Of a stretch of DNA of 64,000 bases, positions 3,598 to 48,562 are shown piece by piece (the first letter of the stretch is position 1; every line of letters starts with the position of its first letter). The notes beneath the pieces were generated by a model. It saw only the letters and a program-made list of their open reading frames with translations, was not told the origin of the DNA and made no database searches. Source of the stretch: an uncultured Phycisphaerales bacterium (lineage in GTDB: Bacteria; Planctomycetota; Phycisphaerae; Tepidisphaerales; Tepidisphaeraceae); NCBI GenBank assembly GCA_963755915.1, contig CAVWLP010000002.1, positions 1,824,001-1,888,000 on the forward strand, in the 5' to 3' direction. Both the position numbers and the translations under genes were made by a program.

Positions 3598-6500
3598 TTC
3601 CAGGCCAATCAGCGCGTCGGTGAATACGTGCTCGATAGTCTCGTAGCGCAGACCCCCTATGCGGAGGAGTGGCGCGCGCACCACCATGCCTGGTCAGACC
3701 AGCTTGCGCTGGTGAAAATTCCCACGGATGCGCAGTACGTAAGCAATTTGCAGCAAGAGGGGGTGCGGCTACATCGGCTGGTCCATCCGAACATCCTCTG
3801 CCCGCTGGGGTTCGATCCGAAGGGGCAGCCGCCGTATCTGATCACCGAATTTATCCCCGGGGAAACGCTGCGGCAGTGGATCGCCGGCAAAAAACTCAGC
3901 GTCGATAAATCGGTGAACATTTTGCGCCAGGTGCTGGAAGCGCTGCGTTTCGGACATGAGCGGCAGATCGTTCACGGGGATGTGCGGCCGGAGAACATTC
4001 TGCTGGAGACCAGCGCGGCCGCGGGCGACTTCGCCGCCAGCGGCTCGGTCAAGCTGACCGATTTTGGCGTCGGTCAGGCTGCGACGGCGACGGTCACGCG
4101 CGACGCGGCCGCCAAGGCGCAGCCGCAGCGCGGGTCGCTCGCCTATGTGGCGCCCGAGCAGCGGGACGGGGCTGCGCCGGACGTGAAATCGGATATCTAT
4201 TCCGTTGGCGTCGTGCTTTTTGAAATGCTCACCGGCGAACCGCCGAGCGGCGCCGAGCTTCCCAGCGAATTGAATTCCGATGTTCCTGCATCGCTGGATG
4301 ACACCTTTAAGAAGGCCTATGCCCGCCGCGACCGCCGATTTGAATCGGCGAAGGCGTTCCTCGATGCACTGGCGCCGGGGGTGCGTCACAGCCGGTTTTC
4401 CAGGCGCCGTCGCCGGCGGCTGCGCCGGTTGAAACCGAGCTGAAATTTCGCGAAGCCGATATTCCTGTCGCCCCAGTGGCAGAGACAGTAGAGCCTGAAT
4501 CCGAGGCCGGGGGTGAGCTGAGCCTGAAATCTGACGACGATTATTCACCGCCGGCCTTCGCGTCTGAGGACGAAGCCGCCGCCGAGGCTGCGGAACCCCT
4601 CGCCGACGAACCAGCGCCGGCCACTGACGAGCAGCTTGAGGAGCAACAGGAAGCCGGCGCCGACACGGCGGTTACGCCCGAAGAACAAACGGGGGGCGAG
4701 CCGGTCATCCCGCCGATTCCGCGCGTTACCTCCCGCGCCGATCGCGATGCGCTCTTCGACGAAATCAGCAAAAAGCAGGTCCGCAGCGTGGAGGAATTGC
4801 GAAACGCTCTCAAGGGCTACTTCGAAATCCGCGACATGGACCAGGGCGAATCCGCGAACATCCGCCTCCGGCTGATCCGCTGGGCGAACGCCTTGGCCGG
4901 CGGGAGCGCCGAGGTCGAAAACGGGATTTCGCTCATCAACGCGGCGGCAAGGCCCCTGTACATCGTCAAGCTGCTGATTCGCAGCACCCGCGGCGACGAA
5001 CCGGAGCGATCGCAAACCCTGGAACATCTGATTGCCCCACAGGCGGGGTCGATGCTGCGCTCGGCCGATTACCGTCTCCTCGCCCATTTTTCCTCCGGCG
5101 CGCTCAATGAAAAGCTTCTGGAAACGATCGCCAGCGCGCCGCTGCGGGCCGCCGTCATCAACCTTACGCGCGACAGCCGGCGGGAATTTTTCGGGAGAAT
5201 TCAGCGCGAAGACCTGCTGATCTACCGCGCCAACGTCATCACGGCGGCGTACCGATTTGATAAGAAGAAATATCGGGCGTTCCTGGTGGGCAATGGGTTG
5301 AGCATCGTGTCGGCGGGGGAGCCGTTCACGAAGATTCGGCAGGAGCCGACGAAGCGGGCGGCGACGCTTCTCAATGGGGAGCAGATTCACCAGGGGATGA
5401 AAGAGCTTCGCCGGGCCCTCGACGACTCGCAATGGGAAAGCAAGGCCAACGGAATCCTGGGCGCATGGCGCGGCAAGCTTGCGGCGGCGTATGTCGCGGA
5501 GGCGAAGGCGCAGTTCAAATCGTTCGGGTGGCTGGAAAGCCTGGAATATTCCGCGAAGGCGGGGCAGCTTGTTCCGGGGCAGGAAGACGCGATTCAACAC
5601 GCCCTGCTGGTGCGAAAGCGGATTGGAAATCTTCAGGTTCTGCCTGGAACCTTTATCGCGGTGGTGCTGGTCGGGCTGGCGGTTCTGGTCGGGCTTTTGT
5701 TTCCCGACCAGATCAACCAGGCGACGACGATGAAGGCCAAGTGGATCCAGATCGCGCAAAATCCGCTCCTGGCGGCGGGCGTGGCGGCGTGGATTGCGAC
5801 GCTCTGGTCGGCGTCGGTGCTGAAATCGCGCCTGGCGCGCACGGATTTCGCGTTTTACCAGGCGGCGGTTTTTCCGCTGCTGGTGGCGCTGGCGATCGCG
5901 TTTGTGAATTACAAGAGCCCGGTGCGCGCGTCGATTTGCGGGGCGCTGCTTGTCGCCGTTGTCGTGGCGGACGTGGTGGTGTTTAAGAAGTTTCGGCGAT
6001 ATCTGATCCGGCCTATCGACGAGGGGAGCTTTCCCGGCGATGGGCTGACGGTGCTGAATCGCATTGAGTCGATGCTCAACGAAGACTGGGAGAGGATAAA
6101 GCCGCACTACATGGAGCTGGGGCCGCTGTACAGCTATACGTCGGTTCATGCGGCGGAGGGGGCGATGGGGGAGTTGATGCAGGAGCCGGAAACTTCCGGC
6201 GGGTCGAGCGACGATACTGCCGGGGGCACGGTTACCGGTAGTTGGCATGCGGCGCCGGCGCCGGCCTCGTCGGAGCCGATTGAGACGGGCAATCCGGAAA
6301 TCGACCGGCTGGCGGCGCAGATGAATGCGCGGATTTCGGCGAACCTTCGCGTTCTCGCGCCGGCGGCGCGAGTGCTCATGACGCTGTTCGGGGAATACAC
6401 GAAGGCGGTGAACAATCACCAGATCGGGATGGCGCAGTCGAACGCGGCGAAGATCGAGCAGAAGGGGAAGGACCTGGCGGCGAAGCTGGCGGATTTTGAC

Positions 6501-37999: not shown

Positions 38000-40285
38000 A
38001 TGAAATTGAAGCTGAGCCGGGTACTGCTGGGCGTAGGGTGTGGTGTCTGCCTGACGCTCGGCATGTCGTGCAAAACGTCGCCCAGCGCGGTTGCGGCTGA
38101 TTCTCCTGATGCGGCGGGGCAAACGCCAACGGCGGTTGCACCGACGACACTGCCCTCGCTGGCGACGCCGTACGGGCTGGAGACGGCGGCCGTTCAGTCT
38201 GCTCGGGAGGGGGAATTTGATCAGACGAACAATTACCTGATGCGGGCGGTGAGCCTGAACCACGATTCTGAAGCCCAGCAGATGGAGAAGTGGGTCGCGG
38301 ATTTTGAGAGTCAGAGGCAGGTTTTCGACGGGCAGCGGCACGACCAGTTCGTCAAGACGGAGGCAGACGCGAAGCTCCTGCTTTCCAAGAAGATGGACAC
38401 CTTCGCGACCGACCAGATTTCGCAGGCATATCTGCTGGCGGACAACAAGGATACTTTCGTTCATGAGAAATGGGTCAGCGACCTGATTCAGGAATCGATT
38501 AACTCGGCGGATACGGATGAAGCCAACGGGCTGTGGCTCAAGGCCTGGAAGATGTACCAGGACCTGAGCGTTATCCAGCCGCTTAATCCTGAGTGGAAAA
38601 ATAAGCTGAAAGTCGTGGCGCTGCGCCTGCGGCTGCTGATGGTGTACGCGCCGGACCGGATGAAGAAACTTGAAGAGGCCGAGCGGAAGGAACGCGATGC
38701 GGCCGATGCGCTGCTGCTCGGTCCGACGACGCAGCCCGCGGTCACGGCGGCGGACGAGGGGGATGCCATTCCCACGGATTGGCATCAGGTGGTTAAGGGC
38801 GTGCAGTTTGAAATGCTCTACAGCTCGCTGGCGCTGGCGGCGCAGGAATATTACCGCGACGTGACCCTCCAGGGGCTGTTGGAAGGGGGGCTCAATGGGC
38901 TGGAAACGGTTGTGACGACCGACGGGCTGGATGAAGCGTTTCCGGGGCTGGACGATCGGGATGCGCAAGCGGTTTCTGGATGATCTGGAAGACTGGAAAG
39001 ACAAAGCGGCCGCGGTGAGCAATGACGATGCGGACCGGGTTGTGGCGGAGGCGCTGACGGATCTGCGGGACATGAACTCGCGGACGATCAAGCTGCCGGA
39101 AGAGGTGTTCGTCAGTGAATTTGCGGATGGGGCGTTTTCGAAGCTGGATATGTTTACCACGGTGATCTGGCCGTACGATGCGCCGGAGCTTGAGAAGACG
39201 ACCGAAGGGGAGTTTGGGGGCGTGGGAATTCAGATCAAGGGTGATGAGAGCACGGGGGACATTGTTGTTGTGCAGCCGCTGCCGGATACCCCGGCTTTTG
39301 CGCGGGCATTCGGCCGGGTGATGTGATTGCGAAGGTGGATGGCAAATCGACGATCGGGCTGACGCCGGACGGGGCGGTTAAGATTATTACGGGCGAGATT
39401 GGGACGCCGGTCACGCTTACCATGCGGTCGCTCAACGGCAACGTGAAGGATTACGTGCTGAAACGGGAGTTGATCAAGGTCGAAAGCGTGAAGGGATGGA
39501 CGCCCAAGGATGACGGCGACTGGAATTACATGCTCGATCCGGACCAGAAGATCGGGTACGTGCGGCTGACGGGATTCAGCAAGACAACCGGCGACGATCT
39601 GAGCCGGGCGCTGGATGAGCTTAAGTCGGAGCAGGCACGGGCGATTATTCTTGATCTGCGGGACAATCCTGGCGGGTTGCTGGATACGGCCCGCAAGGTC
39701 GTCAACGAATTCATCGATCATGGGGTGATCGTTTCCACCCATGCGGATCGGCCGACGAGCAATCCGCCGTCGGAGCTGGATGCAGATCCGCGGGACCTGG
39801 AGACGACGCTGCCGCTGATCGTGCTGGTGAACCAGTATTCGGCGAGCGCGAGCGAAATCGTGTCGGGTGCGTTGAAGGACTGGCATCGGGGGCTGATCGT
39901 GGGGCAGCGGACGTTTGGCAAGGGGAGCGTGCAGATGCTCTTCCCGCTGGACTCCAAGCGCGACGCGTACCTGAAGCTGACCACGAGCCACTATTATCTG
40001 CCCAGCGGGCGATGCATTCACCGCGAGGAGAACAGCACGACGTGGGGCGTCGATCCGGATGTGACGGTCGAGATGACGCCGCGGCAGAAATATGACCGCG
40101 ACAGCGCGCGGCTGGAACTGGACGTGCCGGACAAATGGGCGAACGTGGGCAACAAGCCGACGACGCGGCCGACGGCGCAGGATCTGCTGAAAGTGGATCC
40201 GCAGCTTTCGGCGGCGCTGCTGATCATGCGGCTGCAATTGGCGGCCAGCGAGACGCCGCTGGCGAATCAGTCGGCGATGAGATAA
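38000..40285 (+). CDS. Carboxy-terminal processing protease (S41, PDZ), probably a lipoprotein; frameshifts near 38965 and 39305
   Basis: [39 protein letters not shown] and TFGKGSVQ across three consecutive ORFs. Confidence 0.92.
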
Positions 40286-40329
40286 ATTGTGTGCAGCCGC
40301 CGGGCCTGCGGGGCGCGGGGCATCCTCGT

Positions 40330-41339
40330 ATGCGACGGCTGCACCAATACGCCGCTTTCACCCTTGTCGAGCTGCTCGTCGTTGTGGGCATCATCGCGAT
40401 TCTGATCGCGATTCTGCTGCCGGCGCTCAACGGCGCTCACCAGCAGGCGACGCGGATCAAATGCCTTTCGAACCTTCGGCAGATTTCGATCGCATTCATT
40501 GATTACAGTGCGGAAAACCTGGGGAGTGTCGTGCCATCTTTCAATCTGTCGGGGACGGCGGGGTCGGCCACGAATTATATTGCCACACCCGATTCCACGA
40601 TTATGGACGGCTGGCCGGCTATTCTGGATCGTGATGGTTTTTTGCCTCCGATGCATTGAGCACGTCGACGGCGTTCTATTGCCCGGAGACGGTTGATATC
40701 GACGGGATGGCCACCGGACAGACGGGAACGTATGCGGCGAATCCGCGCGGGTGGATTGAGTGGCCGATGGAGTTCGCGGGACCGACGGGCGGAGACAGCG
40801 ACCCGCAGATTCCGGTGGCGTGGCCGGCGCAGGCGTTCAATAAGATCATTCGGTGCAGTTACTGGGTCAATGCGTACAACCCGATCGGGGGTTCGATCTC
40901 TACGCCGCTTTCGCAAAACGATCTGTATTACACGGCCTGCATCGGTTTCGGGCCGGATCCGAACGGAGCTTATATCAAGATCCACAAAACGACCGGGATC
41001 AAACACTCGAGCTTCCTGATCGTCGTAGCGGATGGCCTGTACATGGGGCGGCAGTCCGTGGATCAGCTGAATATGAAAAATTCTCGTATCGGGTTCCGGC
41101 ATTCGGGGCCGAAGGGTTCCTACACGCTGGCGAATGTGGGCTTCGCCGACGGGCACGTGGAGTCGCTCAATTCAGCGGAATTTCCCTGTTCGTATGCGAA
41201 ATCATCGAGCTATGCTTCGAATCTTGGCACAACGACGCTGGCGCAGCAGGAGGCGCTCAACCTTGCTGGGCCGACAGTGTATGCGGATCCGGAATCGGCA
41301 CTGCAAATCTTTTCCAATGCCAACCCCGGGGCAAACTGA
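40330..41339 (+). CDS. Prepilin-type N-terminal cleavage / H-X9-DG (DUF1559-like) protein; frameshift near 40655
   Basis: [33 protein letters not shown] and FRH...[11 protein letters not shown]. Confidence 0.9.
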
Positions 41340-41356: not shown

Positions 41357-42905
41357 TTATTTGCGGCCAATATCGCGCCGGGTTACTTCTTGTTTTAGCA
41401 TAGCCACCACGTCGTTAATAACGGCTTCCCAATCCCCCTCCCTGGGCTGCCGAAAGAGGCGCATGGTCGGATACCACGGCGAATCGTGCCGATCGAGCAG
41501 CCAGCGCCAATCGGGGTAATGGAGCAGAAGGGTCCAGACGGGGCGTCCAAGGGCGCCGGCGAGGTGCGCCGCGGCCGTGTCGATTGAAATCACAAGATCC
41601 AGATTCGCGGTCAGCGCGGCGGTTTGGGCGAAGTCGCGCAGATCTGCGCCAGTCGACGAGTGGCACCTGGGGCGGCGCCTCAGTGTCGGGATCGTGGGGC
41701 TGCACGCAGAAGAAGACCACGTTATCAACCTCCGCAAACGGGGCCAGGAGGGGGCTTGGAATTGATCGATTTCCGCCGTCGGCAAGCATGCGCCGGCCGG
41801 ACCAGGCGAGCCCTACCTTTAATTTGCCGCCATACGGCGCCATTTTTCCTCGCCAGTGCTCGACCAGCGCTGGGTCGGTGTGCAGATAGGGGTTGTCTTT
41901 GGGGATGTGGTGCAGATCGGGACAGAAAATCTGTCCGAGGCTCAGCAGGGGGCAATGCAGATCGAACGATGGAATTGGCCGGCCTGTGGGGACGATCTGT
42001 TCGATCCCGCGCAAGCCGGCGAAAAGTCCTGCCAATTCGGGCAACGACTGAAGCAGGACGCGGCCGCCGCGATCGGCAACGAGCGGGGCAAAACGCGCAA
42101 ATTGGATCATGTCTCCGAAGGCCTGCTCGATATGCAGATATACCCGCTGGCCGGTTAGAGGTTGTCCCATCCACTGCGGCTGCGCGAAATTCCGAGGCGG
42201 GCATAGCGAGGCAATGCGCCTGCGCCATTCGTATTCCGCCCAGCCTCTTTTCAAATCCCCATGTTGAAGGAGCAGGAGGGAATAATTCCAATGTGCTTCG
42301 GCAAATTGGGGTCGTGCCGCGATCGCCCGCTCAAAGGCCCTGCTTGAGTCGGCAAAACGCCGCAGGCGGCGCATTTCATTCCCGATCCGAATATGCGCTT
42401 CGGCCAGATTGCTGTCCAGCGCAACGGCGCACTGGAATTGCGTTATCGCCTCGTCGGTTTTTGACTGATCTGCCAGGACGATTCCAAGGTTGTAATGTGC
42501 CGCGGCGTGATCGGACTGGAGGGCAATCGCATGCTCCAGGCTGGCCACGGCCCGGTCCAGTTGGCCCATTCTTCGGTGGAATTCGCCAAGATTTACGTAG
42601 TAGTCCGCGGCGAGCGGCTTGATCGAAATTGCGCGATTGATCAGGGCTACTGCCGAATCAAGACGATCCGATCCGGCTTCCACGAGGCTTTGAAGCTGGA
42701 GCGCGTCGACGTTGTTCGGATCCTGGGCCAGCACCTGCGTGCAAAGCGACCGAGCCTCGGCCAATCGACCGCGGTTAAAATGATTTAGCGCGAGGATGAC
42801 CGCGTTTTCGAGAGTCACGATAGGGATAGTACCGCGATGTGCGGGATCGAAAAACAAACGGGCGCTGCCGGCGATCATGGCATTGTTACCGGCCAAATTC
42901 CGCAA
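41357..42905 (-). CDS. TPR protein with C-terminal GT9-like glycosyltransferase domain; frameshift near 41645; start probably near 42820
   Basis: TPRs; EQAFGDMIQFAR, KVGLAWSG, LDLVISIDTAAAHLAGALG and SPWYPTMRLFRQ. Confidence 0.9.
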
Positions 42906-43408
42906 TTGGCTCTTCCGAGGATTTTGGCGAGGACGGTTCCATCATCAAATTCCACGTGTCCATCGCCAAAGAGAATGTTTGCTCCGCCGTTGGGCTGGGC
43001 CGGGAGTTCGTAGGCGATGATGTCGTCCGGCCTCACCGTCATGGTGGTGAATCCGCGGCCCAGATAAACGTAAGAGACATGAGCCGAATCGGCCAGTTGA
43101 TCTGCCGCGGCCTGAGTTGTCGGTCCACTCGCCGGCGTCTCGGATCGCGAGGGTGAGACAAAGACGGGGCTGGTGATGTCCTCATTCAGAAGGATTGTGC
43201 CGAAGGAATCCGGGTATTGGCCGTTAAAGTCTTGGGTGTAGAGCAGGATCGCCTGGCCGATCTGGCGAAGATTCGACATGGATTTGACGCGCGGCGACGT
43301 GTTCGGCTCTTTGTTCTGGCTTGGCAGCAGGAATAGACTCGCGGCGCCGATCGCCAAGACGACCAATATTCCGCCTATCCAGAATGAGCGTTTGGCGGTC
43401 ATCAACAC
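42875..43408 (-). CDS. Short DUF1559/H-X9-DG-like membrane-anchored protein
   Basis: TM, SNLRQIGQAILLY and GANILFGDGHVEF. Confidence 0.8.
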   Translation of the reverse strand: MLMTAKRSFWIGGILVVLAIGAASLFLLPSQNKEPNTSPRVKSMSNLRQIGQAILLYTQDFNGQYPDSFGTILLNEDITSPVFVSPSRSETPASGPTTQAAADQLADSAHVSYVYLGRGFTTMTVRPDDIIAYELPAQPNGGANILFGDGHVEFDDGTVLAKILGRANCGIWPVTMP

Positions 43409-43513
43409 TGCTCATTGGGGATAATGCGCCAAGTTGCGATTCGGATTTCGAATTCGATTCGAAATCCCCCCGGATTTCTGTTGTCACCATCACACTGGCC
43501 GGTTAAAATTTAT

Positions 43514-43636
43514 TCGGCCGGTCAGGCGGCCGACGGTCCGCGTGAAGGGAATGTCCCACCTGCTTAAACAATTCAACAGGCGGTCTTGCGACCCCTTCGG
43601 CCCTAAAGTGCGGACTAACGGGCAAAACAGAAGGAG
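43514..43636 (+). ncRNA. Candidate structured cis-regulatory leader RNA of the ankyrin gene
   Basis: Nested pairings GTCCGC/GCGGAC, GAAGGG/CCCTTC and CCTG/CAGG, plus crossing GCCC/GGGC next to the AAGGAG RBS. Confidence 0.5.
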
Positions 43637-43641
43637 TCGTC

Positions 43642-45185
43642 ATGTTGACGCCCAATTCTTCCGTTCGTTCGATTCCCCCGCGGCCTGATCTGGAGCGCGA
43701 TCGAAAGCAGGCCAAGTCGCTTCTCGATGCTGCGAAGCGCGGTGATCCTGCGGCGCTGGGGCAGTTTAAATCGTTTCATCCTCGATTTGCGGAACTTGCC
43801 GGTGGCGAAGAATTCGCTCTTCACAACGCGCAGCTCGTGATTGCCCGTCAGTACGGGTTTGCAAGCTGGCCGCGGTGGAAGCAGTTTGTCGAAACACGGC
43901 GGCTCGATCGCGCCGGCACGCGGCAGAGCTGATCAAAGCGGCCTCCTCGAACGACGTTCGCAAGGCCCGCGTGATGCTGGAAGCCGAGGCGGATCTCGCG
44001 AGATTTGATCTGGCGACCGCCTGCGCGTGCGGCGAAGTTGAAACGGCTGGCCAAATCCTTGGTCGCGATCCGGGGCTCGCGAAACATAAATTCGGGCCCC
44101 TCAACATCGAGCCGATTCTTTACGCGTGCTTCAGCCGATTCCTGCGGGCCGATCCGGCCCGTGCGCGTGGAATCGTCCAGTGTGTGAGATTACTCCTGGA
44201 CAACGGTGCCGATCCCAACTCGCACTACTGGACCGATTGGGGAAAGGAATCCTGGCTGCAATCGACGCTCTATGGGGCGGCGGGGATCGCCAACAACATT
44301 GAGCTGACCACCATGCTTCTCGACGCCGGCGCTACGGTCGATCCGCACGACGAAGAAGAGGTTCTCTATCATTCGACGGAATTTCCGGACCCGACGTGCC
44401 TGCGATTGGTGCTTCAGCGCGGCAAGCCGCCGGCAAAGCAGGTCAATTACTGCATCGGCCGGGCGACGGATTTTGAATATCCGGAGCACGTTCGGCTGTT
44501 TCTGGAGGCCGGCGCGGACCCGAATTTCCGGGTGAAGTGGGACGGCCTTCGCACGCAGCTTCACAAGGCGGTTTATTTGTCGCGATCCGCGGGCATTGTG
44601 AAGATGCTCATCGACGCCGGGGGTGATGCGAACGCGGTTGATGAGGGCGGCGTCAGCGTCCTTCGCTCCGCGGTGCGCAATGGGGATCGGGAAGTCATCG
44701 AACTCCTGCAATCGCGCGGAGCGCGCGATGAAAGCATCACCGAAGACGACAATCTAAAGGGCGATCCGATTACGCTCTGCCTGGCGGCGAGTCGAAACGA
44801 TTTAAGCACGATCCGCCGGCTGCTGGACGGTGGCGCCGATCCGAACCGTCCGGCTGCGCCGGATCAAACGCCGCCGTTACACTGGGCGGCCTGGCGGGGA
44901 CGGCTGGCGGCCCTGCAGCTTCTGGTTGATCGCGGGGCCGACATTCATTGGCTTAACTCCTACGGCGGCAATGCGATTGGGATGGCGATCCATGGCTCAT
45001 GCCACTGCTTCGACCCCGAAGGCGGGGGAGGCATGAAACTGCCCGAGGAGGCCCTTGCGGGCGAATATCCGCAGATTGTTGAATTTCTGATTTCGCGGGG
45101 GGCAAAACTGCCTGAAAAAATCCAGGGCGGCAGCGAAGCGGTACAGGAAGTTCTGCGTCGTCAGGGAATACCGGATGCGGAATAA
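43642..45185 (+). CDS. Ankyrin-repeat protein with N-terminal RPDLE..RKQAK / AQLVIARQYGFASW domain; frameshift near 43915
   Basis: LLDNGADPN, FLEAGADPN and TPPLHWAAWRG ankyrin repeats; ORFs 43642-43932 and 43875-45185. Confidence 0.9.
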
Positions 45186-45521: not shown

Positions 45522-45972
45522 CTATGGATGCAAATTCGGATTTTCCACCTGCAATCCTTCGGCGATAGCGGCAGCATTTAATTCATCGTCGGCGGAAACA
45601 AGATAGAAACTTGCGGATGCAGGCGGTTCCGGACTAGAAAGCAAAGCACACGCAAGTTGAAGCGCATCTGCCGCGCCAGTGCGTGCGCCGCGGCCAATGC
45701 CACGGCGCGGGCGATTACCGGGCCTTGCAGCTCGATAATCTCAAAGATTTCTTGCATCTCCCGATCAAGCGTCGTCAGCGCGTTGTAACCTGTTCCGGTG
45801 TTATGCCACGCTCCCGGCCGCGGCGCACGATGGCAGAAGTTACCTCAATATGTGCCAGTCTTGCCACGACAATACGCTCTGATACCCCAGGCAAATTCAG
45901 CATCCACTGACTTCCCGCCTCACGCCGATAGCGCTTTAACAACGCCGATGAATCCAGGAAATACTGGGGCAT
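45522..45972 (-). CDS. vapC: VapC-family PIN-domain toxin (frameshifted)
   Basis: YFLDSSALLKRY...E; shifted frames give GAADALQLACAL and LVSADDELNAAAIAEGLQVENPN. Confidence 0.85.
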
Positions 45973-45977
45973 GAAAA

Positions 45978-46253
45978 TTAGCGTCGATCGCGAATCAACT
46001 CATCGGAGAGCGAGCCGCCAGGCATTTCAATCGGTCTCCACGCCATGAAACGCGCCAGGACTTCCGGACTTGGTTTTGGAGGAACTGTTCGTACCACGCC
46101 GCGCTGCCGGAGCAAGTGATCCAACTGCTGCTCGCTTTGTGGTTGAGCCTGCAGGACAGCACGCTCATTAAGCAGACGCACAAGCTGCTCGCGCTCCGCG
46201 TCATTTAGCGCTTGCGCCGCTTGGAAGAGCTTATTCACGTTTTGGCTGACCAT
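45978..46253 (-). CDS. Putative antitoxin of the VapC toxin
   Basis: Immediately upstream of vapC; C-terminal GGSLSDELIRDRR typical of VapB-like partners. Confidence 0.75.
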   Translation of the reverse strand: MVSQNVNKLFQAAQALNDAEREQLVRLLNERAVLQAQPQSEQQLDHLLRQRGVVRTVPPKPSPEVLARFMAWRPIEMPGGSLSDELIRDRR

Positions 46254-46480: not shown

Positions 46481-47989
<1,509 letters not shown>

Positions 47990-48562
47990 GTATTTCTTGG
48001 ACCCGATCGCTCCTCCAGCACGGCGTGACGCGGTGAAGCGCTGGCCGTGACTAACGGTTTCGCAATCGGGGTTATCCTCGAAACGAGTTTGCCCACCGAT
48101 CGATTTAAGACAAATCAATCGGATGTTTCTGCCCCTTTGCCGGCTTGGGCAAAAGGGTCAGTCCCGATCCACCGATCCAAACAACAGACCGGCTTCTCGA
48201 GAGCAAGGCTCAAACATCTTCGATGGCTTACTTACTCAAACTAATGATCAAGGAAGATCACTTGGCAGAACCGGACGTTTGACGGTCCAATCCTGCCGTT
48301 TGCGTGTAACCACAAGGATGCTTGAGAAAAAAACTTCAAACCCGATTGTCACCGGCCTAAAGGTCGTGAAACCTGAAAACCGGCACGTTCGGATTCGTCC
48401 ACGGCGAAATGTACACCAATTCGCCTGGACACACATCCTCGCGGTTATCCGACTATTCACTTGTCAAAGAACAGAGAAACAATCATAAACCACCGCGGCA
48501 AAACAGGTTGCCGCCGTGATTGCTCCCACAAAAAGCTTTTTGAACTTCAGCGGGGGAGGCAG

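Follow-up and report, generated by a model that had tools for sequence, protein, structure and literature searches.

An orphan riboswitch-like leader class upstream of bacterial ankyrin-repeat genes, with predicted sequestration of the Shine-Dalgarno sequence

Background

Riboswitches in which a pseudoknot hides the Shine-Dalgarno (SD) sequence, such as SAM-II (RF00521), preQ1-II (RF01054) and NAD+-II (pnuC), are among the nearest comparisons for the leader described here. The ZTP (pfl) riboswitch, which controls purine and folate genes, is built from two sub-domains with a variable linker and a long-range helix to the 3' hairpin region. Leader structures that hide the SD sequence also serve autoregulation, as in ribosomal-protein leaders and the thrS and T4 gene 32 operators; the proteins concerned are established RNA or single-strand binders, and their leaders often mimic the main target of the protein.

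The locus considered here lies within a 64,000-nucleotide stretch of DNA that was analysed as a whole (the window). Positions 43514-43641 (+) are the predicted 5' untranslated leader of an ankyrin-repeat gene and one copy of a conserved class of folded RNA. An earlier note on this DNA had listed a set of complementary segments in the leader and had proposed that they form a cis-regulatory RNA, and direct reading of the window recovers every one of these segments (Table 1).

Results

The locus

Direct reading places the ATG start codon at 43642 and an SD sequence, GAAGGAG, at 43630-43636. A consensus scan found one promoter-like site, compared with 0.2 +/- 0.4 in shuffled sequence, and a transcript initiated from it would begin near 43516, at the foot of the P0 hairpin. 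A genome of the same genus (G001) is 90% identical to the window from 43512 onward and unrelated 5' of 43512, and it carries a TTGTGA...TATAAT pair just 5' of the point where the similarity begins. Short-read contigs from four public runs, which may include the sample from which the window was assembled, jointly cover 43400-43837 (pieces 43400-43563, 43410-43837 and 43475-43633); the leader is identical in them, and an A>G at 43825, within the coding sequence, is the sole listed change in the span.

Table 1. Predicted elements of the leader, its promoter and its gene, in window coordinates
Feature	Position	Strand	Observation
Promoter-like TTGTCA-17 nt-TAAAAT	43481..43509	+	consensus scan, 10/12 matches
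P0 hairpin (TCGGCCG 43514-43520 / CGGCCGA 43527-43533)	stem 43514/15-43520 with 43527-43532/33	+	loop GUCAGG; 5 pairs, 73% paired, 4 changed on both sides (alignment imperfect because loop length varies)
PK1 5' strand CAGG, in P0 loop	43523..43526	+	pairs with CCUG 43559-43562
P1a 5' strand A-C	43533..43534	+	pairs with G-U 43542-43543; closes the GUCCGC loop
P1 5' strand GUCCGC, in loop	43536..43541	+	pairs with GCGGAC 43610-43615
Purine tract GAAGGG, alternative pairing	43544..43549	+	complementary to CCCTTC 43593-43598
Two unpaired A between P1a and P2	43545..43546	+	A in 101/101 aligned leaders, letters required by the retrieval pattern for 77 of the 101
P2 hairpin GGGA-AUG-UCCC (GGGA 43547-43550 / TCCC 43554-43557)	43547..43557	+	98.8% paired, 3/4 pairs changed on both sides
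PK1 3' strand CCUG, after P2	43559..43562	+	pairs with CAGG 43523-43526; also complementary to CAGG 43577-43580
Linker, variable	43563..43587	+	length and sequence differ across the family; window copy contains CAGG
Anti-SD strand GCGAC-C-CCUUC, 5' side of sequestering helix	43588..43598	+	window MFE and family covariation
PK2 stem 5' strand GCCC	43600..43603	+	pairs with GGGC 43620-43623; upper 3' hairpin
P1 3' strand GCGGAC, apical loop of 3' hairpin	43610..43615	+	pairs with GUCCGC
PK2 stem 3' strand GGGC	43620..43623	+	pairs with GCCC 43600-43603
SD strand GAAGG-A-GUCGU	43630..43640	+	pairs with 43588-43598
Regulated gene, N-terminal helical domain of ~80 aa and ankyrin repeats	43642..45185	+	ORFs, Pfam

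Several other features of the surrounding sequence deserve mention in their own right. A perfect 11-bp inverted repeat (GGATTTCGAAT / ATTCGAAATCC, 43443-43453 and 43457-43467) lies between the divergent genes, and a third GGATTTC at 43472-43478 falls just 5' of the -35 box; the inverted repeat, of which G001 keeps a single arm, may be a transcription-factor site. The neighbours at 42875-43408 (-) and 40135-41339 (+) encode prepilin-like proteins of the DUF1559 type, a family typical of Planctomycetota, with N-terminal hydrophobic helices and a ...DGHVE... motif, and one of them has a weak match to Pfam PF07596 (E = 9e-4, below the cut-off). Farther downstream, two small adjacent ORFs at 45775-46253 (-) resemble a toxin-antitoxin pair and adjoin the 16S rRNA gene at 46487-47990 (-); the 65-aa product of this putative pair starts MPQYFLDSSALLKRY... 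and by eye looks like the N-terminus of a PIN/VapC protein.

Distribution of the leader

A search of 61 related genomes with the N-terminal 96 aa of the gene product (the N-domain) gave matches in 8 genomes at 9 places, and the leader is present at all nine as well as at a tenth homologous locus (L003). A loose DNA pattern, applied to 401 genomes of the window's phylum, matched 75 of them, with a reversed-pattern control matching at a similar rate. These matches are mostly chance, and the 13 clear members retained were chosen by eye and then confirmed by a covariance model; all 13 precede a gene that starts with the same N-domain. This model (R1), which spans 115 positions and describes nested helices only, separates the true members, at 40-92 bits, from other loci, none of which exceeded 15 bits. 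Across one genome per species (185,579 species), an exact three-block pattern recovered at least 120 stretches, and a census with R1 located the ~115-nt leader in 101 places within 100 fetched loci.

Going by record titles, these leaders occur in at least ten phyla. Phyla were assigned by title for 80 listed loci and five lineages were checked in taxonomy, the remaining titles being placed in the phyla to which we presume them to belong. Acidobacteriota account for 49 of the 80, Gemmatimonadota and Actinomycetota for 8 each, Pseudomonadota (Alphaproteobacteria where named) for 6, Planctomycetota and Armatimonadota for 2 each, and Chloroflexota, Vulcanimicrobiota, Poribacteria, Latescibacterota and an unclassified record for 1 each, proportions that carry no meaning because the order of the scan was arbitrary. 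Within a sample of the window's phylum the motif is patchy, with the leader in 12 of 151 genomes at up to four copies each, and gene and leader may have spread together by transfer.

The window's own genome has one copy of the leader. A second match in that genome, at 21.5 bits (E = 0.61), was treated as chance. Two genomes (G124 and G210) have four leader places each, and in multi-copy genomes each copy has its own N-domain gene. One Gemmatimonadota contig (L138) has two copies, at 792-916 and 4219-4336, which lie 3.3 kb apart on opposite strands.

Covariation and the 5' domain

Folded as a single sequence, the leader is not exceptional: the minimum free energy (MFE) of 43514-43650 is -51.4 kcal/mol against -44.6 +/- 3.9 for shuffled sequences (z = -1.74), a value that 10 of 200 shuffles reach, and the fold of the 252-nt intergenic stretch (z = -1.90) is likewise not decisive. 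It is the comparative evidence, and not the single-sequence fold, that leads us to judge the leader to be beyond chance.

Structure was counted on an alignment of all 101 sequences with three bracket types beyond R1. We adopted the model-based alignment, MAFFT alignments having misplaced helices of unequal length; it was fitted to P0, P1 and P2, with PK1, P1a and PK2 outside the fit. Covariation in the aligned sequences supports six helices, namely P0, PK1, P1a, P2, P1 and a long 3' hairpin that includes pairing with the SD sequence. Over the whole structure 85.7% of cells are paired, compared with 79.3 +/- 0.4 after shuffling and 26-46% in slid controls; 219 cells have changed on both sides, compared with 85.8 +/- 7.8; and the covariation score is 0.200, compared with 0.095, a value matched by none of 500 shuffles. 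The pattern that brought in 77 of the 101 sequences prescribes the P1 core, the AAG and the CTTCTTTC tract, and the invariance of these core letters in the 77 is partly by construction. For that reason we assembled a pattern-independent set of 25 leaders that had come to light solely through protein similarity or the model. Its covariation score is 0.294 against 0.125 shuffled, again with 0/500 shuffles as high, and the observed score was likewise beyond all 500 shuffles in each of four counts that we made.

The predicted 5' domain consists of P0, P1a and P2, tied together by the pseudoknot PK1. Covariation bears out the hairpin that the earlier note drew at 43514-43533, which is P0 (4 of 5 pairs changed on both sides), and its GGGA/TCCC hairpin, which is P2; the closing pair of P2 is CG in 73 sequences, AU in 13 and UA in 11. 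A further hairpin of that note, CCTG(43559) with CAGG(43577), is not conserved, being paired in 31.3% of cells family-wide against 31.6% after shuffling. The conserved partner of CCTG 43559 is instead the CAGG in the P0 loop (43523-43526). This contact, PK1, is absent from the search model R1, is 89.6% paired in the 101 sequences with 4/4 pairs changed on both sides (one pair is AU in 55, GC in 25, GU in 7 and CG in 5), and is 96.9% paired in the 25 pattern-independent leaders.

P1a was found by a mutual-information scan, with 90.4% of cells paired; one of its pairs is C-G in 95 and A-U in 5, with zero mismatches in 100 cells, and in the 25-leader set C-G in 20, A-U in 3 and G-C in 1, with 1 mismatch. 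In the window, A43533 could alternatively pair with U43514. The segments GTCCGC and GCGGAC, which the earlier note had joined as a nested stem, form P1, and this pairing too is upheld by covariation: 92.6% of cells are paired in the 101 leaders, and in the 25-leader set 150/150 inner cells are paired with 4/6 pairs changed on both sides. Compensatory examples include GUCCAC/GUGGAC, GUCUGC/GCAGAC, ACCCGC/GCGGGU and AUCCGC/GCGGAU. Because GUCCGC lies in a loop closed by P1a, the best reading of P1 is a loop-loop contact that links the two domains. Of the two unpaired A between P1a and P2, the first is a G in 1 of the 25 pattern-independent leaders. A conserved, structured 5'-UTR domain with covariation, as is characteristic of riboswitches, is thus present in both the 101 and the 25 sequences.

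Sequestration of the Shine-Dalgarno sequence

A start codon was called 12-45 nt past the model match in 85 of the 101 leaders; the 6 of these with the longest spacers, which contain inserted hairpins, were excluded by hand, leaving 79 sequences whose 3' domains could be aligned through to the start codon. In this alignment a 14-pair helix joins a strand of the CGAAC-CUUCUUUC type to one of the GAAAGGAG-GUUCG type family-wide and stops short of the start codon by one to a few bases. Of its cells 80.1% are paired, and both sides have changed in 8 of the pairs (for example CG 31/UA 17, and GC 25/CG 11/AU 5), and its covariation score of 0.203 against 0.137 shuffled is reached by none of 500 shuffles. 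Divergent members show matched changes, pairing CUUCUCUC with GAGAGGAG, GACCUCCU with AGGAGGUC and CGUUCUUC with GGAGAACG. The core of the helix is present in 67 of the 79 single-sequence MFE structures, and the window's own MFE structure pairs GCGAC with GUCGU and CCUUC with GAAGG. Applied to the alignment of the 3' domain, alifold with RIBOSUM scoring predicts the sequestering helix and the PK2 stem from scratch; RNAalifold with default scoring returns zero consensus pairs on the same alignment, a result that we count against our best explanation.

The GCCC/GGGC pair, described in the earlier note as a crossing pair, covaries as the PK2 stem, which is 72% paired in the 101 leaders and 85.1% in the better-aligned 79, where its middle pair is CG in 40, UA in 27 and UG in 8; the 56.9% pairing in the 25-leader set reflects misregistration of that stretch. 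The 3' domain as a whole is predicted to be one long hairpin comprising the sequestering helix, an internal loop, the PK2 stem and an apical loop with GCGGAC. Its lower helix pairs the pyrimidine tract with the SD sequence and with the nucleotides that follow it as far as the start codon, and would thereby hide the ribosome-binding site (RBS). This predicted pairing of pyrimidine tract and SD sequence, which the earlier note had missed, is the best-supported regulatory feature of the leader, and through the apical loop this expression platform is linked to the 5' domain, an arrangement again characteristic of riboswitches.

Some members depart from this layout. An extra hairpin of 15-45 nt lies between the PK2 3' strand and the SD sequence at six loci (L030, L032, L034, L074, L084 and L139), and at two (L003 and L034) 5-6 consecutive U come after the PK2 stem, an arrangement that resembles an intrinsic terminator. 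Expression platforms may differ between lineages.

U-G pairs persist on the sense strand, one pair of the sequestering helix, for instance, being U-G in 69 of the 79 sequences, which fits an RNA of the gene's strand and not DNA. That the stretch is instead a conserved DNA operator or promoter, or owes its complementarity to chance in GC-rich DNA, would agree with the non-significant single-sequence fold (z = -1.74), with its position between divergent genes and with the unrelated inverted repeat just upstream (43443-43467). We regard this as extremely improbable, given the compensatory changes in six helices, unequalled by any of 500 shuffles in each of four counts, the strand-specificity of the G-U pairs, a distance and orientation to the start codon that are fixed in 98 of 101 cases, and a similarity to the closest relative that begins at the predicted transcript start. 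The cis-acting RNA structure that the earlier note placed on the gene's strand is accordingly conserved, with covariation, across homologues.

The regulated gene and its N-terminal domain

A frame break near 43912 splits the gene in the window into two overlapping ORFs, 43642-43932 and 43875-45185: the first, of ~90 aa, runs into the ankyrin-repeat ORF in a different frame, and Pfam ankyrin matches reach E = 1e-25. One short-read contig from the public runs has an extra C behind 43912 and an A>G at 43918, giving a single ORF of ~515 aa, and the frame break in the window is probably an assembly or strain indel. Homologues are also frame-broken, in G001 at or near the same point and in another genome (G011) elsewhere, in assemblies of few contigs and low completeness. 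These genomes, 59-83% complete and in few contigs, have the look of long-read assemblies that contain indel errors.

The leaders that the earlier note had suggested ahead of homologous genes in other phyla do exist: an N-domain lies within 520 nt 3' of the leader in 98 of 101 places, as judged with a profile built from these same proteins. In the remaining three places the contig ends, the gene is truncated or there is no gene at all. Where it is truncated (L085, 4740-4930 (-)) the ORF stops after about 20 codons with unrelated sequence beyond, and where it is missing (L110, 4819-4932 (-)) neither an SD sequence nor an N-domain follows; both are probably decayed copies. The N-domain profile matches twice in tandem within one ORF in Inquilinus (L087/L208) and in Amycolatopsis (L096/L209), which indicates that the domain can be duplicated.

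This nearly one-to-one association across phyla is what would be expected of an autoregulatory operator, in which the encoded protein binds the leader through its N-domain, stabilises the fold that hides the SD sequence and represses its own translation. Other observations agree with such an operator. All seven leaders in five named genomes are followed by an N-domain gene, so that the leader is specific to it; and among 10 full-length homologues from different phyla the N-domain is constant and the C-terminal part varies (ankyrin repeats in 9/10, leucine-rich repeats in 1/10), with lengths of about 200-900 aa. In the gene neighbourhoods of 80 loci we found no recurrent neighbour, no conserved operon partner and no metabolic gene; same-strand clusters occur in at most 5 loci each, and the larger clusters other than the gene are opposite-strand ORFs that start in or near it, most likely shadow ORFs. 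Lastly, the N-domain is modelled with confidence as a five-helix unit (pLDDT 81) that belongs to no known family, leaving room for a role in RNA binding; as a variant of this idea, the domain may be a new RNA-binding module that recognises the leader.

By contrast, the N-domain has no likeness to an RNA-binding fold or sequence: its best match among PDB structures by Foldseek has E = 2, and among PDB sequences E = 0.039, to a protein named JUBO2. It matches no Pfam family; NCBIfam, searched with 10 proteins, returned only a sub-threshold match to the N-terminus of the PRK05973 'DNA helicase' in 2/10, and the ESM Atlas returned only unnamed clusters of hypothetical proteins. The same five named genomes also contain three weaker N-domain paralogues that lack the leader. 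Upstream of one weaker paralogue (L215, in the L081 genome), below detection by the model, a stretch ...CUGCCGAAAGGGCUAGGCCCGCC... resembles the junction and P2 and may be a reduced variant of the motif. An RNA core highly conserved over about ten phyla, as here, is moreover less usual in protein-binding leaders than in riboswitches, although gene and leader may, as noted above, have spread together. On balance we consider autoregulation by the gene product rather unlikely.

Discussion

We conclude that the leader is very probably a structured translational cis-regulator. As its effector we think a small molecule or ion likelier than the gene's own product, which would make the leader an orphan candidate riboswitch, an assignment that we offer tentatively. 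In the mechanism that we propose, the effector would stabilise the 5' domain and so lock the purine tract, (G/A)AAGGG, in P1a and P2; with the purine tract locked, the pyrimidine tract would pair with the SD sequence and translation would be off. In the absence of effector the purine tract, which would be transcribed first and is SD-like in sequence, would capture the pyrimidine tract and leave the RBS free.

The pairing invoked for this second state is the GAAGGG/CCCTTC stem of the earlier note, whose reading of the leader is supported in part. Family-wide, as (A/G)AAGGG with UUCUUU, it can pair in 97.7% of cells, but it shows zero covariation; there are several registers in which the two tracts pair, slid controls being at 54-84%. 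The pairing and P1a, P2 and the sequestering helix are mutually exclusive, and it is a plausible candidate for the 'on' conformation, as an alternative state only. With a sequestering helix far stronger than this alternative, any switching would have to be kinetic.

A fold with multiple pseudoknots, a core conserved in about ten phyla, an expression platform that would hide the RBS and the near-universal possibility of the alternative purine-tract pairing are all riboswitch-like traits. Against a small ligand, the genes under the motif are all of one non-enzymatic family of ankyrin/LRR proteins with no conserved neighbour, and include no enzyme or transporter that would point to a ligand; and the conserved unpaired nucleotides are few, mainly the two A and one A after P2, and so offer little obvious ligand pocket.

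An element that requires no effector, acting through constitutive damping of translation, protection of the mRNA 5' end or melting with temperature or another physical cue, is a further explanation. All helices supported by covariation, the sequestering helix included, could form at once; no two mutually exclusive helices are both so supported; and the transcript is predicted to begin at the first hairpin, where 5'-terminal hairpins can stabilise mRNA. Six helices in a doubly pseudoknotted fold with a loop-loop contact are, however, far more elaborate than is usual for RNA thermometers and 5' stabilisers, and purifying selection has kept the specific loop-loop and pseudoknot contacts in distant phyla. 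We think an effector-independent element improbable. A leader that responds to a small molecule or ion remains our preferred reading, and its fullest form, a broad new riboswitch class of at least ten phyla with a kissing architecture, whose ligand would govern the production of ankyrin proteins, is one that we advance as possible and with reserve.

To our knowledge, new structured cis-regulatory RNAs that span many phyla are now rare finds. The present class has more than 100 representatives and clear covariation in six helices, two pseudoknots and one loop-loop contact among them, and the ankyrin-repeat proteins that it would control are common in soil phyla (Acidobacteriota, Gemmatimonadota, Actinomycetota, Planctomycetota and Alphaproteobacteria). 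Identification of the effector would yield either a riboswitch class and a ligand tied to ankyrin proteins, or a new RNA-binding domain; should the leader prove to be a riboswitch, its ligand would be the first clue to the role of these proteins. The motif is in either case an immediately testable handle on ankyrin-repeat proteins without an assigned function.

Comparison with known systems

The Rfam search that the earlier note had called for returns no match to the leader in Rfam 15, and novelty therefore stands. At the gathering score the 16S rRNA is the sole match in the whole window; 43300-43800 gives 0 matches at E up to 10; 12 loci from other phyla give one tRNA only at the gathering score; and one acidobacterial leader, at E up to 10, gives three chance-level eukaryotic or archaeal matches (8-14 bits) on the opposite strand. 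The leader is an orphan riboswitch-like class absent from Rfam 15. We found no description of the motif in the full-text literature, although it may appear under a different name in the supplementary motif lists of comparative screens. Look-ups of terms in PMC11109978 and PMC5737381 likewise led to no description in the portions of those papers that they reach; the word 'ankyrin' has 0 occurrences in the available texts of PMC2864571 and PMC5737381, and 'Acidobacteri' and 'Planctomyc' have 0 in the main text of PMC5737381 (2017).

The orphan riboswitch candidates of Weinberg et al. (2010, PMC2864571; 2017, PMC5737381) resemble the present leader in combining conserved intergenic structure, covariation and association with one gene class; the leader differs in lying outside the families of Rfam 15.

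Like the ribosomal-protein leaders and the thrS and T4 gene 32 operators, the leader is tied to a single protein family, whose gene it precedes, and it overlaps the RBS. Unlike theirs, the protein here is an ankyrin-repeat protein whose N-domain has no detected RNA-binding fold. With ZTP (pfl) the leader shares the layout of two sub-domains, a likeness that is architectural only, in that there is no sequence or model match and the gene context is another. With SAM-II, preQ1-II and NAD+-II (pnuC) it shares a location in the 5' UTR directly before the start codon, an RBS within a conserved helix, pseudoknots that organise the fold and a likely output in translational control. It differs from these three in being larger (~125 nt) and without an Rfam model match, in its two-domain build, in which a variable linker and a loop-loop helix make the connection, and in preceding genes that are not metabolic.
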